A stretch of 60,150 nt of DNA from Clostridia bacterium. GTDB lineage: Bacteria; Bacillota; Clostridia; TANB77; CAG-465. The DNA lies in contig JBJEXW010000011.1 in the NCBI GenBank assembly GCA_051886195.1, forward strand, positions 1 to 60,150, written 5' to 3'. Positions 7,237 to 55,112 of this stretch are shown piece after piece. How positions within the stretch are numbered: the stretch's first letter is position 1; every line of letters begins with the position of its first letter. The translations under genes were made by a program, and so were the position numbers. The notes beneath the pieces were generated by a model, which was not told the DNA's origin, ran no database searches, and worked only from the letters and a program-made list of their open reading frames with translations.

Positions 7237-8358
7237 CTATTCATCTTTCAAAAGTTCAATTATATTTACTTTTTTGAGTCTAATATTATTAAATTTTATA
7301 GCAATTATAGAAATAGTATAAACACATACAAACATTAAAAATAACACTATTAAATATGATTTAATATCTTTAAAAATACTAATAGATAATTTATACTCAA
7401 TTATACATTCGATTATTTTAATTAAAAATACTGATATTATTGATCCAAGAAAAAATGATATTGCTAATATTGTACTTATTCTATATCTAAAGATAGATGA
7501 TATATCTCTGATTTTATATCCCATAGCTTTAAATATTGCTATATCGATTCTTTCATTATTTAAAAAATTAGCAATTATAATACTAATTGAAATATAGGTA
7601 TATATTATTGTCAAAAATAGTATAATTAATATTAAATTCTTAGCTAAATTATAAATTTTTATGTCTGTTTGTCCGCTCAAATCATTTAAATTTGCACTTA
7701 GTCCATTTGATTTTAAGTTTTCAATAATTTCTTCAACATTACTATAATTATTTGCAACTAAATATACAGAGTTATTATCCTCAATCACATTGTTATACTC
7801 TATTAATTTGTTCTTTAATTTTTCATTTATATACATATTACTTTCATAATTATTAACATCATATACTCCAACAACTAGTGCTTCAATATTTAAATCTTCA
7901 ATTGTTAAAGAAATCCTTTCACCAATAAAGTTATCTAAAAAAATCCATTTATTTGTTCTGTCTAAAATTTTCTTAGGTAATATAATTTCAAAATCTTCAT
8001 TATTCTTAAAATTTTCTCCCTTAATAATTAATGGTATTTCTTCTTTTGAAACATACATAGTATTCATTATAAATAACTCGTTAACATTCATTGAAAATGG
8101 AACTAATCTTCTGTATACATATTCAACATTTTCAATGATTTCAAAATCATTTAAATTATTCTTTTCTTCATTGCAATTAGAATATATAACTCTATTTATA
8201 ATATTATTTTGTATTTTTTCTGAAAAAGTATTGTTAAACGCATATAAACTATATATTATGGAAATAATCATTCCAAAAGTAACTGACATAGATATAATAT
8301 ATATTTTTAATTTTTTATTATTTAAGAAGCCATTAAAAGCTGGTATTAGTAATCCCAT
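7237..8358 (-). CDS. FtsX/MacB-type ABC transporter permease
   Basis: N-terminal TM, periplasmic-like domain, ERIDIAIFKAMGY motif, three C-terminal TMs. Confidence 0.8.
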   Translation of the reverse strand: MGLLIPAFNGFLNNKKLKIYIISMSVTFGMIISIIYSLYAFNNTFSEKIQNNIINRVIYSNCNEEKNNLNDFEIIENVEYVYRRLVPFSMNVNELFIMNTMYVSKEEIPLIIKGENFKNNEDFEIILPKKILDRTNKWIFLDNFIGERISLTIEDLNIEALVVGVYDVNNYESNMYINEKLKNKLIEYNNVIEDNNSVYLVANNYSNVEEIIENLKSNGLSANLNDLSGQTDIKIYNLAKNLILIILFLTIIYTYISISIIIANFLNNERIDIAIFKAMGYKIRDISSIFRYRISTILAISFFLGSIISVFLIKIIECIIEYKLSISIFKDIKSYLIVLFLMFVCVYTISIIAIKFNNIRLKKVNIIELLKDE

Positions 8359-11679: not shown

Positions 11680-12517
11680 TTATAATTCCTTTATTTTTTC
11701 TTCTACTTCTCTTAGATTATTAAAGCCAAGTTTTTTAAATCTTTCAGATATTTTATTTCTATTACACAACAAATATTCTCTAACGATGTGCCATGTATTG
11801 AAATAACAATTTTTTAGATAATATTTAACTTGCTTTAATTGTTTTTCCTGTTCTAAATTAAGCTCAAGCGTAAAAGGCTTTTTTTCTATATTTTCATATA
11901 AAAGTTGTGCAACAATATATGCTAAAATTTCATTTAAAACTGGATACTTTCTTTTATTTGTTAAAAATATCTTTTCGTCTCTTACATATACATCTTTACT
12001 ATTTAATCCATAGTAGAAGCTTACTCTAAATCCTTCCTTCTTTAGATTTATTTTTTTACTCTTATCTCGTGCAATACCTTTAACTAAATTATAATATAAC
12101 TGCATTATATATTCATCTTTAGGTAATCTAGGCAAATTCATATTAGGAAAAATCTCATATACATTATTTGCATAATATATTGGTTCATGAAATTTAAGTT
12201 TTATTTTATTATTTGCACTCACTCTTGTTTTTCCAGCAGTAAAAAAATACGTATCTAAATTATTTTCTATCTCCTTTGTATTTTCATCATAAAAATATAT
12301 ATTTATACTTCTAGCGTTTTGCTCAAGTTTTTCGATTTCTTTATTTTTAAATTCTGCTCCGATATTTCAAATAATTTAGAATATTCTCATATTTTAATTT
12401 AATTTCTCTTTGAGTATATTCAAGTGGTGCATCAAGTAATTGTGTTTTATGGAACAACTTATTCCACATCCTTCTAAAAAAGTTAGGTTTTTCTTTGTTA
12501 TTATAACTATTAGTCAT
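11680..12517 (-). CDS. Hypothetical protein split by a +1 frame break at about 12361 (recoded gene or pseudogene)
   Basis: AGGAGG SD and ATG 12517 open a 56-codon ORF ending at TAA 12347-12349; the +1 frame is open from 12366 to 11680; joined product about 278 aa. Confidence 0.6.
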
Positions 12518-25160: not shown

Positions 25161-26312
25161 TTACATTGCCTCTTTAAATAATGCAACAAAATCTTCTTTT
25201 GTAACTTCTCTTGGATTACCTGGTTTACATGCATCATTCATAGCCTTTTCTGCAAGCATATCTAAATCTTCTTCTTTTCCTCCAACATCTTTAACAGTTT
25301 GCGTAATTCCAACTTTTTCAGATAATTCTTTAATAGTCTCAACAAATTTAGAAATAACTTCTTCTTTAGACATATTTTTAGCATCAATATCTAGTGCAAC
25401 CAAAATATCTCTAAATCTTTCATAACATACTTCACCATTAAATTTCATAACTGTTGGTAGTAATATTGCATTTGCAATTCCATGAGGTGTATCATAAACT
25501 GCGCCTAGCTGATGTGCCATAGAATGTACTATTCCAAGTCCAACGTTTGAAAATCCCATTCCAGCAATATATTGAGCTAGTCCCATATTATCTATTGCTT
25601 CCTCATCTTTTTCATTAACTGCAGCTGGTAAATATTTAAATATTAACTTAATTGCTTGCATATGAAACATATCTGACATTGTATTATGTCCTTTAGTAAT
25701 ATATCCCTCAACTGCATGTGTTAAAGCGTCCATACCAGTAGCTGCAGCTAAAGATTTAGGCATAGAAGCCATTAGTTCAGTATCCACAATAGCAATAATT
25801 GGAATATCATGTGGATCAACACATACCATTTTAACTTCTCTATCTTCATCTGTTATAACATAGTTTATTGTTACTTCAGCAGCTGTACCAGCTGTTGTAG
25901 GTAAAGCAATTATTGGTAATCCTTTGTTCTTTGTATTAGATAAACCTTCTAAAGAAACTATATCTTCATTTTGAGGATTTGTCATTATTATTGAAATAGC
26001 TTTAGAGGTATCTATACTTGAGCCGCCTCCAACAGCTACAATTAAATCTGCTCCAAACTCTTTACAAGCTTTTAGACCATCCCATACATTTTTCTTAGTT
26101 GGATTAGGTTTTACATCTGAAAATACCTCAAATTCAATATTTGCTTTTTCTAGTAATTGTGTAACTTTAGTTGTTACTCCAACTTCAAATAAAGATTTAT
26201 CTGTTACTACAAATACCTTTTTATATCCTCTATTTTTTATTTCATCCACAAGAACTTCTCTTGCACCTTTTCCAAAATATGATGTTTCGTTTAATACAAA
26301 TTTTGTTGTCAT
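25161..26312 (-). CDS. fucO: Lactaldehyde reductase-like iron-containing alcohol dehydrogenase
   Basis: LNETSYFG, GGGSSID, PTTAGTAAEVT, GMDALTHA, HSMAHQLG, PHG; start at ATG 26312 behind GGAGG. Confidence 0.88.
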   Translation of the reverse strand: MTTKFVLNETSYFGKGAREVLVDEIKNRGYKKVFVVTDKSLFEVGVTTKVTQLLEKANIEFEVFSDVKPNPTKKNVWDGLKACKEFGADLIVAVGGGSSIDTSKAISIIMTNPQNEDIVSLEGLSNTKNKGLPIIALPTTAGTAAEVTINYVITDEDREVKMVCVDPHDIPIIAIVDTELMASMPKSLAAATGMDALTHAVEGYITKGHNTMSDMFHMQAIKLIFKYLPAAVNEKDEEAIDNMGLAQYIAGMGFSNVGLGIVHSMAHQLGAVYDTPHGIANAILLPTVMKFNGEVCYERFRDILVALDIDAKNMSKEEVISKFVETIKELSEKVGITQTVKDVGGKEEDLDMLAEKAMNDACKPGNPREVTKEDFVALFKEAM

Positions 26313-26325
26313 TTTTCTACCTCCA

Positions 26326-27781
26326 TTATAATACGTTTTTAAGTACAATTGTTTTAATTTTTGAAACTTCTTCTAATGTTGTAGCAATTCCTTCATTTCC
26401 TATACCACTATGCTTCCATCCACCAAATGGCATTTCAGCACTTCTATAGAAACTTGCGCCATTTACTATTGCTCCACCACATTCTAGTTTTGAAGCTATT
26501 TGAATTCCTAGTTTATAATCTTTAGTAATTACGCAACCACATAATCCATAAGAAGATTGATTTGCAATCTCAATTGCTTCTTCAACTGTATCAAATCCAA
26601 TTACTGGAATAACTGGTCCAAATATTTCCATATCTTTTGCAACATCCATATCACGAGTTACATTATCTAAAATAGTTGGTCCATAATATGCAGAATATCT
26701 CTTTCCTCCACATACAACTTTTGCACCTTGTTCTACAGTTTTATTAACATATTCTTCAACTCTTTTTGCAGCTTGAATGTTAATTAATGGTCCCATATCT
26801 GTATCAAAAGATGATGGATCTCCTACTTTAAGTTTAGATATAACTTCTTTCATTCTATCAATAAATTCTTGTTTTCTAGAATTATGAATTAAAAATCTTT
26901 TACTTGCACAACAAACTTGTCCACCATTATATAATCTTCCCCATGTAGCTTCTTTAACAGCTAAATCCATATCTCCATCTTCAAGCATAATAAATGCATC
27001 ATTTCCACCAAGTTCAAGTAAAACATGAGTCAAATTCTGAGAACAAGTAGCCATTGTTTGCATTCCTGCTGCTGTACTTCCTGTAAGTGATACAAGATGT
27101 ACTCCAGGATTTCTTGCTAACGCTTGACCACATACTGGCCCGTCCCCTGTTAATACTTGTATACATCCTGCTGGAACTCCTGCCTCAACCATTAATCTTA
27201 CATATTCTATTAATGTAAGTGGATTATAATTTGATGGCTTAACAATTACAGCATTTCCCATAATTAATGCAGATGGTACTTTTTGTCCAAATAAATCACA
27301 AGGAAAATTAAACGGTATAATAGCTGCAACAACACCTACTGGCTCTCTTACAGTTATTTGCATAGATTTTTCTTGTCCTGGCTCTGCATCTCCTATTAAA
27401 CTTTCACCATATAAATGTTTAGCTTTTTCAACATAACCATTAACAAAAATTCTACAGTTTGCAATTTCTGCCATTGCTTCTTTAATTGGTTTACCAGTTT
27501 CACAAGATAAAAGCCAAGCCAAGTCATCTGCATGATCTTCTACCATATTTGCAAATCTATTTAATATTCTGCCTCTTTTGTGCATCGGCATAGCAGCCCA
27601 TTTCTTTTGTTCAATTTGAGCAACTCTTACAGCTTCTTCAACATCAGCTTCTGAGCAATTTGGAACTCTAGCAATTATTTCTTGAGTAGCAGGGTTATCT
27701 ACCTCAATATATTTTCCATCTTTTGCTTCCTTCCATTCATAACCAATTAAATTTTTAGGATTACCCTGTGGAGCTCTTCAT
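26326..27781 (-). CDS. NAD-dependent aldehyde dehydrogenase whose N-terminus lacks an in-frame start
   Basis: PFNFP, TGST, LELGG, GQVCCA, EIFGP, PFGG; the frame stays open upstream of 27591 to 27777 (KNLIGYEWK..NPAT); the ATG at 27781 is one base out of frame. Confidence 0.85.
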
Positions 27782-28944
27782 TTACCAAGACCAGTAAATG
27801 ATAACATTAATCCTCCGCATGTATTTCTATCATTATTATTTGATCCATATTCACCAAATGTAAATATAGTCATAAATGGTGTATCGCCAGCTTCGTCTTT
27901 TAAACGTTTAGCCACCTCGTCTATTCTATCACCAATTCCTAATTTTCTACCACCACAATGTACTAGTAAATATGCTCCTACTCCATTTGGTAATTTTTCT
28001 TTTACAGATTTCATTGCATCTGTTGTAGAAGTGATTAGTTCATCTACTGAACCTTCCATTTGAATAACAGCTGTACTTTCAGCTAAATTATTTCCTATAT
28101 TCATAGATAAATCATCGTTACCAGCCATTGGATGACGAATAGCAACTAAGTCTCCTAATCTATCTTTTACACCAAGTGGTGCTAAAATAGTTTCAACAAG
28201 AAGATTTCCTCCTTTTAAGTCTTCAACTTTCTTTCCAGTCCATTTAGAATATTGCTCTAATGCTGGGATTCCATTTATTTCTGCTAATTGTCTCTTTCCA
28301 TTTACTTTAGTTATTACTCCTACATTTTTTGTTTCACGATATGCACCAGTATAAACATTAGATAATGGTTTATCTGTGTAGAAAAATGCTACTACACATC
28401 CATCACTAAATATAACATCATCTGCATATAATGACCATAGCCCCTCAACAGTATTATCTGCTGCAGAACCACCAAACATAGGTACTCTTCCTATTACATC
28501 TTCAATTCCTTTTAAGTAATCTTCTTCTTCTTTTGGAGAAGCTGCCATATAGAAATATGAAGGTGCACAAGTTTTTCCTGCTTTTTTCATTGCCTCTTGA
28601 GCTATTTTTCTACCAGTTTCTCTTGCATCCTTATCTAATGCGCTTCCAGCAACTCCTACGCTCATTGCACTATCAGATAAAGCCATAACTCCAACAAAAC
28701 CATTTTCTGAAGTTATATATCCATCAGGTACAATAATTCCTCCACTTGAAGTGCAACCTACTACAGGAACATTTCCTAGGGCCTCTTTTGCTCCTTCTAA
28801 TACTTCTTCAACGTTATTATCTACTGAAGTATAAAGTAGAGCTACTTTTGTTTGTGTTAAATTAAGCATAGCTTTTTGAGCTGCCTCTTTACCAGCTTCT
28901 TTACTTGATTTAGCTGTGCTCCAACCAACATTTGATTTTAACAT
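27778..28944 (-). CDS. Stand-alone FIST (FIST_N + FIST_C) domain protein
   Basis: VGCTSSG, FGGSAAD, EING.PA, HCGGR, FTFGEYG motifs. Confidence 0.85.
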   Translation of the reverse strand: MLKSNVGWSTAKSSKEAGKEAAQKAMLNLTQTKVALLYTSVDNNVEEVLEGAKEALGNVPVVGCTSSGGIIVPDGYITSENGFVGVMALSDSAMSVGVAGSALDKDARETGRKIAQEAMKKAGKTCAPSYFYMAASPKEEEDYLKGIEDVIGRVPMFGGSAADNTVEGLWSLYADDVIFSDGCVVAFFYTDKPLSNVYTGAYRETKNVGVITKVNGKRQLAEINGIPALEQYSKWTGKKVEDLKGGNLLVETILAPLGVKDRLGDLVAIRHPMAGNDDLSMNIGNNLAESTAVIQMEGSVDELITSTTDAMKSVKEKLPNGVGAYLLVHCGGRKLGIGDRIDEVAKRLKDEAGDTPFMTIFTFGEYGSNNNDRNTCGGLMLSFTGLGK

Positions 28945-54056: not shown

Positions 54057-55112
54057 TTAATGTGTTTTTAATTTTTTGCGTTTTCTACCTAATTTCCTTT
54101 TAAGTGGCATTCCAACAGTATACATGAAATATACAATTGGATTATATACTTTGTTTATTTCACCTATATATTCTTCTAATCCTTCTTCTCTACAAAATCC
54201 AATTTTGAATTTGTATAATCCATTATTTGGATCTAAATTTAAAACACCACCAAAATTATATGTCTTGCAATTTGTTTCTAATCCCCATCTTATCATTGCC
54301 ATTTGCATAGCATAATTTGGCATTAAATTTCTTTTAACATTAGAGCTAGCACCATATACGTAAAATAATTCTCCACCTATATTGGTAGCAATTGCAGCAG
54401 CTAATGCTTCTCCCTCATGTTCTGCTATATATATTCTTAGTTTTGTTTCATCATACGCATCTAGCATTCTTTCAAAATAGTCATAATCTCTGCAACCAAT
54501 TTTATCTCTAATTGTTGTTATTTTATATATTTCATAAAACTTCTTTAAATCTTCTTTAGTTCTTGAATATCTAACAGTGACACCTTTTCTTCCAGAAAGT
54601 CTAATATTATACCTTGTTTTTTCTGCGAAACTCTTCATAAGTTCTTCTTCTGTTTTTCCATCTATATTTAGAACCATATTATGTCCTGGTTGAATTAAAT
54701 AATCTGGATCAGGCTTGTATCCTGTTGTTTTATATTTTGCTTTTTTATACATTTTATCTAATTTATCATCATAAAGAACTTGTGGATCAAATTTTAGCAT
54801 ACATGCATTATACTTTTTTACTAAAGGATCTGCTTCTTTTATTAACTTATTTACTAAATCAATATCATAAACGTCACAAACAGGACCACGAGGTGAATAT
54901 ATTATTGTTGAATGAAATGGTATTTTTTGTACAAGTAACATCATAGCTGCAATAATTTTTCCATTTTCTTTTAAATATATAGCCTCTTGTTTCCAATTAT
55001 TTTTTACTTTTCCCCAATTTAAATCCTGCATAAAACTTGTTCCTACACGATTTAAAATAAAGTCTTCATATTCTTTTACTTCCTCTTTATTATTAAAATC
55101 TAATATTGGCAT
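54057..55112 (-). CDS. FemAB/FemX/MurM-family peptidoglycan bridge aminoacyltransferase
   Basis: FMQ...WGKVK, YSPRGP, KTRYNIRL, YVYGAS, GLYKFK. Confidence 0.9.
   Translation of the reverse strand: MPILDFNNKEEVKEYEDFILNRVGTSFMQDLNWGKVKNNWKQEAIYLKENGKIIAAMMLLVQKIPFHSTIIYSPRGPVCDVYDIDLVNKLIKEADPLVKKYNACMLKFDPQVLYDDKLDKMYKKAKYKTTGYKPDPDYLIQPGHNMVLNIDGKTEEELMKSFAEKTRYNIRLSGRKGVTVRYSRTKEDLKKFYEIYKITTIRDKIGCRDYDYFERMLDAYDETKLRIYIAEHEGEALAAAIATNIGGELFYVYGASSNVKRNLMPNYAMQMAMIRWGLETNCKTYNFGGVLNLDPNNGLYKFKIGFCREEGLEEYIGEINKVYNPIVYFMYTVGMPLKRKLGRKRKKLKTH

Follow-up and report, generated by a model that had tools for sequence, protein, structure and literature searches.

An in-frame UGA between a FIST-family gene and an aldehyde dehydrogenase is a candidate programmed readthrough site in gut Clostridia

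In the 60,150-nt stretch of DNA analyzed here (the window; Clostridia bacterium, contig C11 of a 1.55-Mb draft genome, G000, with ~26% G+C and 96% completeness), a gene for a FIST-family protein and the coding sequence of an aldehyde dehydrogenase (ALDH) share one reading frame and are separated by a single TGA. Comparison of this junction with those of its relatives suggests that programmed UGA readthrough probably yields both the FIST protein alone and a FIST-ALDH fusion, and that this event would be the main or only source of the ALDH in the clade of nine species that carries the junction in the form seen here. The layout with an in-frame UGA is shared across this order of small, AT-rich gut Clostridia.

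The junction and its surroundings lie on the minus strand throughout. The whole FIST-UGA-ALDH frame occupies positions 26326 to 28944 and would encode 871 aa if its lone UGA were decoded; codon 389 is the only in-frame stop, and the frame is open thereafter until the TAA at 26328-26326. The FIST gene (28944-27781) encodes 388 aa, in which a Pfam profile search finds both FIST_N and FIST_C (PF08495, 2.6e-32; PF10442, 7.2e-23). Because it scores 83.8 bits against the NosP model, below the cut-off of 450, we regard the protein as a FIST-family member rather than a NosP equivalog. Its 3′ end reads GGT AAA TGA, and this TGA (27778 to 27780, context AAA UGA A) is the candidate readthrough site. Downstream, the same frame continues with AGA GCT CCA CAG GGT AAT CCT AAA AAT TTA ATT GGT TAT GAA TGG, in which the first seven codons form a linker (RAPQGNP, 27757 to 27777). 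The ALDH part runs from KNLIGYEW to the TAA (26326 to 27756) and gives a full-length match to PF00171 (3.6e-153, profile positions 1-461). Its translation contains LELGGND and GQVCCA, which we take to be the ALDH Glu and Cys motifs, and its best NCBIfam match is lactaldehyde dehydrogenase, at a score under that model's cut-off.

What this ALDH frame lacks is a start. For 62 codons past the TGA it contains no ATG, GTG or TTG, and its first in-frame ATG (27589 to 27591) is the position at which gene callers begin a truncated 421-aa product. Overlapping the TGA is the ATG (27781-27779) of a short open reading frame (ORF) in another frame, ATG AAG AGC TCC ACA GGG TAA (MKSSTG*, 27761 to 27781), whose GGG (27766-27764) and TAA (27763-27761) create a candidate +1 frameshift site, GGG_UAA_U. 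This arrangement had been described in an original prediction made from the letters of the window, and the end of the FIST gene, the 62 start-less codons and the MKSSTG* overlap are all confirmed here, as are the intact catalytic motifs and the ATGA overlaps at the two other TGA stops that it named (9620 and 21033). A hairpin that it placed at the short ORF's stop, AGGG-TAA-TCCT, amounts to AGG-GTAAT-CCT with only 3 bp and carries no weight.

The junction is shared well beyond this one assembly. A search of the genus's 50 species found it whole in nine, this one included. The nine junctions are identical from CTT GGT AAA TGA to GGT AAT, apart from AGA>AAA in one species, and zero indels separate the nine species over 2.6 kb. 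The junction also occurs on two metagenome contigs. A DNA contig of independent origin, from another study, covers the stretch with 0 gaps, and a contig from a metatranscriptomic library (X15) covers 27721-27918, also with 0 gaps, although this library may hold DNA and contigs hide rare variants. Two RNA runs, X16 and X17, gave nothing that bridged the junction, and no inference was drawn from them. Pattern scans, which returned nine loci in genome contigs and three in metagenome contigs, recovered these species and a single outgroup, with no further variant of the junction.

One of the three models in the original prediction had been a simple extra A in an ancestral ATG AGA GCT start, to be checked in reads over the junction and in relatives with one A fewer. 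The DNA contig and the RNA-library contig both agree with the window, and no relative in the nine-species alignment has the shorter form. Because the same indel-free junction is present in nine species and in independent contigs, this error model is refuted; AAATGAAGAG, which the window has in common with relatives in other families, also speaks against it. Transcriptional slippage was considered as well and rejected, as the region contains no long homopolymer and the X15 contig has 0 gaps, the latter being weak evidence since contigs drop rare variants.

The ALDH is under purifying constraint on both sides of its first ATG. Across the nine species, the ratio of nonsynonymous to synonymous polymorphism (pN/pS) is 0.175 in FIST; within the ALDH it is 0.19 over the 56 codons that precede the first ATG (pS 0.38) and 0.12 over the remainder. 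None of the 483 ALDH codons carries an indel or a stop. The value of 0.19 indicates that ribosomes translate the ALDH frame through the start-less N-terminal codons. The closest database ALDHs (94, 88 and 87% identity) are annotated as 421 or 419 aa, and therefore public annotation has missed their N-terminus. Such shortened calls are what might be expected if the junction were an assembly error or a private mutation, or if the ALDH were a decaying pseudogene in this clade. Set against a junction shared by nine species, an independent DNA contig with 0 gaps and 483 intact codons at a pN/pS of 0.12-0.19, we assign almost no probability to these explanations.

Translation of the N-terminal codons could also begin within the ALDH itself, at a non-canonical codon such as the AUU/AUA at 27747-27745 or by a restart that needs no normal start, leaving the ALDH a separate protein. 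The AUU is the only near-cognate in-frame start codon near the N-terminus, and the region upstream of it is A/U-rich. However, AUA replaces it in two of the nine species, and there is no Shine-Dalgarno (SD) sequence at a usable distance. Furthermore, the preceding codons, AAT CCN AAA AAT YTA, change only synonymously, which indicates that translation is already under way upstream of the AUU. We consider independent initiation of this kind quite improbable.

The order provides a broader view of the junction. Using the last 140 FIST residues as the query, we searched 401 genomes of the order and obtained a match in 82; 3′ ends were retrieved from 60 of the matching genomes (other species), and 59 of these parsed as FIST-ALDH junctions. 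Two more distant TGA relatives had given the first in-frame open linkers before this wider census. All 59 junctions have TGA-A at the FIST stop and an open linker in frame with the ALDH; AA UGA A is invariant in 60/60. The linkers themselves are highly diverse, ranging from 11 to 79 codons with 26 distinct lengths and 55 distinct peptides among the 59 junctions. Even so, the 57 distinct linkers contain 0 stops in 2055 frame-0 codons, whereas their other frames have 161/1998 and 241/1998. In 26 of the 59, no in-frame ATG, GTG or TTG precedes the ALDH start. That start is kept in every one of the 59 relatives (ATG in 36, GTG in 23), each time with an SD-like site. These junctions lend support to the second model of the original prediction, in which UGA readthrough gives a fusion of about 870 aa.

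The separation of the two proteins by a stop is equally consistent. Replacement of the stop by a sense codon was never seen among the 59 junctions. No uninterrupted FIST-ALDH fusion was present among the best 120 matches in 5.8 billion proteins or among the best 150 matches in 1.84 billion representatives, searches in which a genuine fusion is expected to outscore all single-domain matches. Two ~900-aa proteins among the representatives that matched in two stretches are ALDH-ALDH tandems. The stop between FIST and ALDH thus appears to be maintained. At the one locus that did not parse (L110, genome G157), FIST ends with TAA and is directly followed by a fucO-like gene, with no ALDH; because FIST adjoins a fucO-like gene there, it travels with lactaldehyde genes even without the fusion. 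A separate combination of related domains occurs in a 908-aa database protein (P0168), which has an ALDH of this type and the iron-containing alcohol dehydrogenase (FucO-like) domains in one chain and may reflect either a genuine fusion or two gene calls merged into one.

Many of the relatives' linkers open with AGA GNN GGG GAA AAA CCA CAA (R-x-G-E-K-P-Q); the pattern of their first residues is R-[AED]-G-[EK]-K-P-Q. In an alignment with six relatives, the AGA GCT of the window matches the start of the linker, and its CCT falls exactly at the position of their ALDH ATG/GTG. The window's CCA CAG resembles the CCA CAA of the relatives' linkers, a likeness that suggests a deletion of the codons in between; the alignment did not pair these two copies. 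By this comparison, the frame that follows UGA in the window is homologous to the frame that its relatives keep open, which also explains its ordinary codon usage. The original prediction had pointed to preferred codons in the linker, and we indeed find that the zero-frame linker codons are common whereas those of the overlapping ATG frame are rare (TCC 0.8, GGG 2.1 and AGC 4.3 per thousand).

Most members of the order also provide the ALDH with its own SD and ATG or GTG at the end of the longer linker. The best reading of the alignment is that the linker became shorter in the nine-species clade and that the ALDH there lost the ribosome-binding site and start codon of its own, which would leave readthrough as the main or only route to the enzyme. 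The overlapping AUG, for its part, is simply the ancestral AAA-UGA-A.

The same AUG is central to the remaining model of the original prediction, in which ribosomes restart at 27781, translate MKSSTG and, once GGG occupies the P site and UAA the A site, slip +1 onto GGU to produce a stand-alone ALDH beginning MKSSTGNPKNLIG. Several features favor this route. The ATGA overlap and GGG_UAA_U are invariant in the nine species and the two metagenome contigs, and the one base that changes within the block (AAG>AAA, in one species) does not alter the short ORF's peptide. GGG would be read by tRNA-Gly(UCC), as only GCC and UCC tRNA-Gly were found, with no CCC, and re-pairing on GGU retains two G-C pairs. 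The ALDH would also stay a separate protein, as in every other lineage. A shift-prone codon followed by a stop is a known +1 design: CCC_UGA, which closes the short pheL ORF, shifts at 15% and is also used by Listeria phages (PMC5009743). As at prfB and such shifty stops (CUU_UGA_C; CCC_UGA; PMC5009743), the GGG_U here can re-pair in +1, lies directly before the stop and leads into a +1 frame (AAU CCU AAA..., NPKNLIG) that encodes the main protein.

In other respects the site departs from this design. The AUG has no SD, unlike most true ATGA-coupled genes in this genome, which have GGAGG-like sites. The shift codon likewise has no SD-like stimulator 3 nt before it. The stop itself is UAA-U, in E. 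coli a strong context for termination, rather than the weak UGA-C of prfB-type sites. The short ORF is built from very rare codons (TCC, GGG, AGC), and no comparable GGG-stop +1 site turned up elsewhere in a genome-wide search of G000. Moreover, the ancestral AAA-UGA-A, which itself supplies the AUG, occurs in all 60 junctions, with or without the short ORF and the shift site, and the relatives show the zero frame past UGA, open in 59/59, as the translated one. The site of the proposed slip is present and invariant, but these findings speak against the inclination of the original prediction to treat the overlapping ATG as a real start. We judge a +1 shift unlikely as the route to the ALDH, though it might coexist with readthrough. 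What probability the readings weighed in this work leave over, we assign to mechanisms not considered.

If UGA is decoded, its decoder could be sought in selenocysteine (Sec) insertion, a reassigned genetic code or a near-cognate tRNA. Sec insertion assisted by a hairpin downstream would account for an in-frame UGA that is universally retained with no sense-codon replacement, and some relatives have strong hairpins a few bases past UGA, both as in selenoprotein genes. The search for Sec machinery proposed in the original prediction was negative: G000 has no selA, no selB reaching the cut-off (the best match being EF-Tu-like) and no tRNA-Sec over the gathering score (the best match being tRNA-Ser(UGA)), with selD not searched. 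Five relatives, one of them a single-contig genome, likewise have no selB over the cut-off and no tRNA-Sec over the gathering score. The window has no stable hairpin of the Sec insertion sequence (SECIS) type after the UGA and no Rfam match there, and most of the linkers lack a hairpin. Unlike in selenoprotein genes, the UGA lies in an inter-domain linker with no redox Cys motif at the site. On these grounds, the chance that this UGA encodes Sec is negligible.

A code in which UGA is reassigned to Trp (table 4) was ruled out. Release factors RF1 and RF2 are both present in G000, TGA ends 44/916 long ORFs, and long ORFs are intact under table 11; unlike in reassigned codes, UGA thus still terminates genes here. 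The RF2 gene prfB (contig C43, locus L010, 1393-2529, minus strand), recognized by its SPF motif, reads as one uninterrupted frame and lacks the usual programmed +1 frameshift site. Genome-wide, G000 yielded no other start-less extension past an in-frame TGA that is comparable to the FIST-ALDH junction.

The sole tRNA-Trp(CCA) found in G000 (contig C37:33322-33395, outside the window) has an unusual structure, with A27 unpaired opposite C43, leaving a 4-bp anticodon stem, and a U11-A24 pair. The gene is 100% identical in the eight other species of the clade. Order-wide, 27:43 is unpaired in 19 of the 20 tRNA-Trp genes read, and A24 is present in all 20. A tRNA-Trp with a 4-bp stem promotes UGA readthrough in E. 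coli, as do G24A and A9C changes, and genomes having only the 4-bp form use UGA less (PMC13092985, 2026). With its unpaired 27:43 and A24, the tRNA-Trp of G000 resembles the 4-bp and Hirsh-type A24 forms of that work, and the rarity of UGA as a stop in this genome fits the association described there. The topic of PMC13092985 is code reassignment and tRNA distribution, and its available portions name no readthrough-dependent Clostridia gene.

These observations suggest how programmed readthrough might operate at the FIST-ALDH junction. The majority of ribosomes would terminate at the UGA (27780-27778) and release the 388-aa FIST protein. Some would decode the UGA, most likely as Trp via near-cognate tRNA-Trp(CCA), and pass through the seven-residue linker in frame into the ALDH, producing a fusion of ~871 aa. 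We infer the decoding event, the identity of the residue and its efficiency from sequence comparisons. We lean only slightly towards a broader proposal, in which the whole order encodes FIST-UGA-linker-ALDH as one readthrough gene and the unusual tRNA-Trp, acting against RF2, sets the passage. The fraction of ribosomes that pass would then determine how much free sensor is made relative to the sensor-enzyme fusion.

A number of observations weigh against UGA readthrough as the explanation. The argument for UGA decoding comes from comparative genomics alone, and readthrough is usually inefficient, yet a strongly selected ALDH would depend on it wholly in this clade. The invariant GGG_UAA and AUG are also compatible with a +1 shift. 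Linker pN/pS is 0.67 in frame 0 versus 0.72 and 1.06 in the other frames, so that frame 0 is barely below frame 1; such mildly low values fit a loosely constrained spacer that needs chiefly to stay open. There is no universal downstream structure, as 13/57 distinct linkers fold with z < -2, the commonest linker class has no hairpin, and the corresponding region of the window has z = -0.12. In four other species of the genus, FIST ends with TAA or TAG, followed by a short GGAGG spacer and then ATG AAA AAT TTA (MKNLIG), which indicates that the fusion is dispensable in some lineages. The evidence on the tRNA is similarly mixed. Although a single tRNA-Trp was seen in G000, the 96%-complete draft gave just 34 tRNAs; genome G116 has the UGA layout but a normal 5-bp anticodon stem; and the four TAA/TAG species carry the same kind of tRNA-Trp as the clade. 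Because of the 5-bp stem in G116 and the 4-bp form in the TAA/TAG species, we regard this tRNA as a plausible enabler and not a proven cause.

Two features of the relatives' linkers were observed alongside the census. Some relatives, with class-II linkers such as those at loci L066, L068 and L071 (genomes G289, G362 and G083), have a perfect 10-bp hairpin, GACAGUCUAC-AGAA-GUAGACUGUC, that starts about five bases past the UGA and has a z of about -5.8. Longer linkers (L094-L123, for example in G260, G270, G251 and G241) share a two-Cys motif, Y-E-C-T-x-E-x-Y ... V-C-K, which may represent a mini-domain between FIST and ALDH; the window does not have this motif.

Constraint at the nucleotide level is also evident around the UGA. 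Of the 872 codons, 70% have a variable third position among the nine species. The ten codons around the UGA (27760 to 27789) show no third-position change and form the second-longest such run, the longest being eleven ALDH codons at 27679 to 27711 (TAT ATT GAG GTA GAT AAC CCT GCT ACT CAA GAA, including the rare AAC). Two of the next four longest invariant runs fall inside 27843-27793. The eleven-codon block contains GAUAACCCUG, which is 9/10 complementary to CAGGGUAAUC (27768-27759), a segment that starts nine bases past the UGA. The minimum free energy of 27800-27675 is no better than that of shuffled sequences (z = -0.12), and RNAalifold and single-sequence folds disagree, one favoring a local hairpin (27706-27681) and the other a long-range CAGGGU/ACCCUG helix. 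The GAUAACCCUG/CAGGGUAAUC helix competes with the local hairpin, and no pair covaries; since the paired columns are all either invariant or broken, no covariation test is possible. Just upstream, a weak hairpin, CAUUUACU-GGUCUU-GGUAAAUG (27778 to 27799; eight pairs, or seven at -3.6 kcal/mol), holds the AUG and part of the UGA, and its sole variable base lies in the loop. An Rfam search of this region of the window returned 0 matches. We regard the nucleotide constraint at the junction and at 27711-27679 as real.

Programmed readthrough is exemplified by phage Qbeta A1, made via UGA, by retroviral gag-pol via UAG, and by eukaryotic genes with UGA-CUAG. The FIST-ALDH junction is like these systems in that an in-frame stop parts two coding segments and both the identity and the context of the stop are conserved; as proposed here, termination and extension products would likewise both be made, with decoding by a near-cognate tRNA. 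Unlike viral readthrough, it belongs to a chromosomal bacterial operon and would join two complete, otherwise separate proteins, a sensor-like FIST protein and an enzyme. It further differs from known readthrough in its order-wide presence with highly variable linkers, in the lack of a universal downstream structure and, in the nine-species clade, in a downstream enzyme without a start of its own.

Programmed readthrough of stop codons has been well documented for viruses and eukaryotes, but dependence on it is known for very few cellular genes of bacteria, and a full-text literature search found no paper linking FIST, ALDH and readthrough. The comparative signal for a conserved readthrough gene in these abundant gut bacteria is of unusual strength, and the 57 distinct linkers, with and without downstream hairpins, provide a natural test bed. 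If readthrough occurs as proposed, the gene would be one of the rare bacterial cellular genes with programmed, and possibly regulated, readthrough. A core step of lactaldehyde metabolism in this clade would then be governed purely by stop-codon decoding, and the 4-bp-stem tRNA-Trp described in 2026 would gain a physiological role. Pathway reconstructions for these organisms are wrong at the ALDH step because public calls truncate the enzyme (419-421 aa) or split the pair.

The next gene of the operon is fucO, encoding lactaldehyde reductase (25161 to 26312, minus strand; NF007911, 577 bits, cut-off 537). It has an ordinary GGAGG of its own and an ATG at 26312, eleven bases past the ALDH stop. 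A terminator-like site follows fucO at 25145-25123, and promoter-like sites lie upstream of FIST.

Further frames with irregular starts or junctions were noted in the same genome. Outside the window on contig C17 (~54470-54560, plus strand) lies a frame without a start, beginning RKKELLKVTNDYVFRKIFG and resembling Rpn/transposase-like nucleases, that a short ORF, MLENIEANEEKKNY*, partly overlaps. The overlap occurs at GA A_AAA_AAG, a classic -1 slippery heptamer, and could reflect recoding, slippage on the A-run or an error. On contig C28 (~7390-7430, minus strand, outside the window), a gene resembling those for substrate-binding proteins shifts frame at a run of five T, probably through a homopolymer error or because it is a pseudogene. 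Finally, within the window, a 228-codon open frame at 11683-12366 (minus strand) has 48 codons ahead of its first ATG, GTG or TTG (a GTG at 12222), and there is a stop three codons upstream of the flanking TGA.

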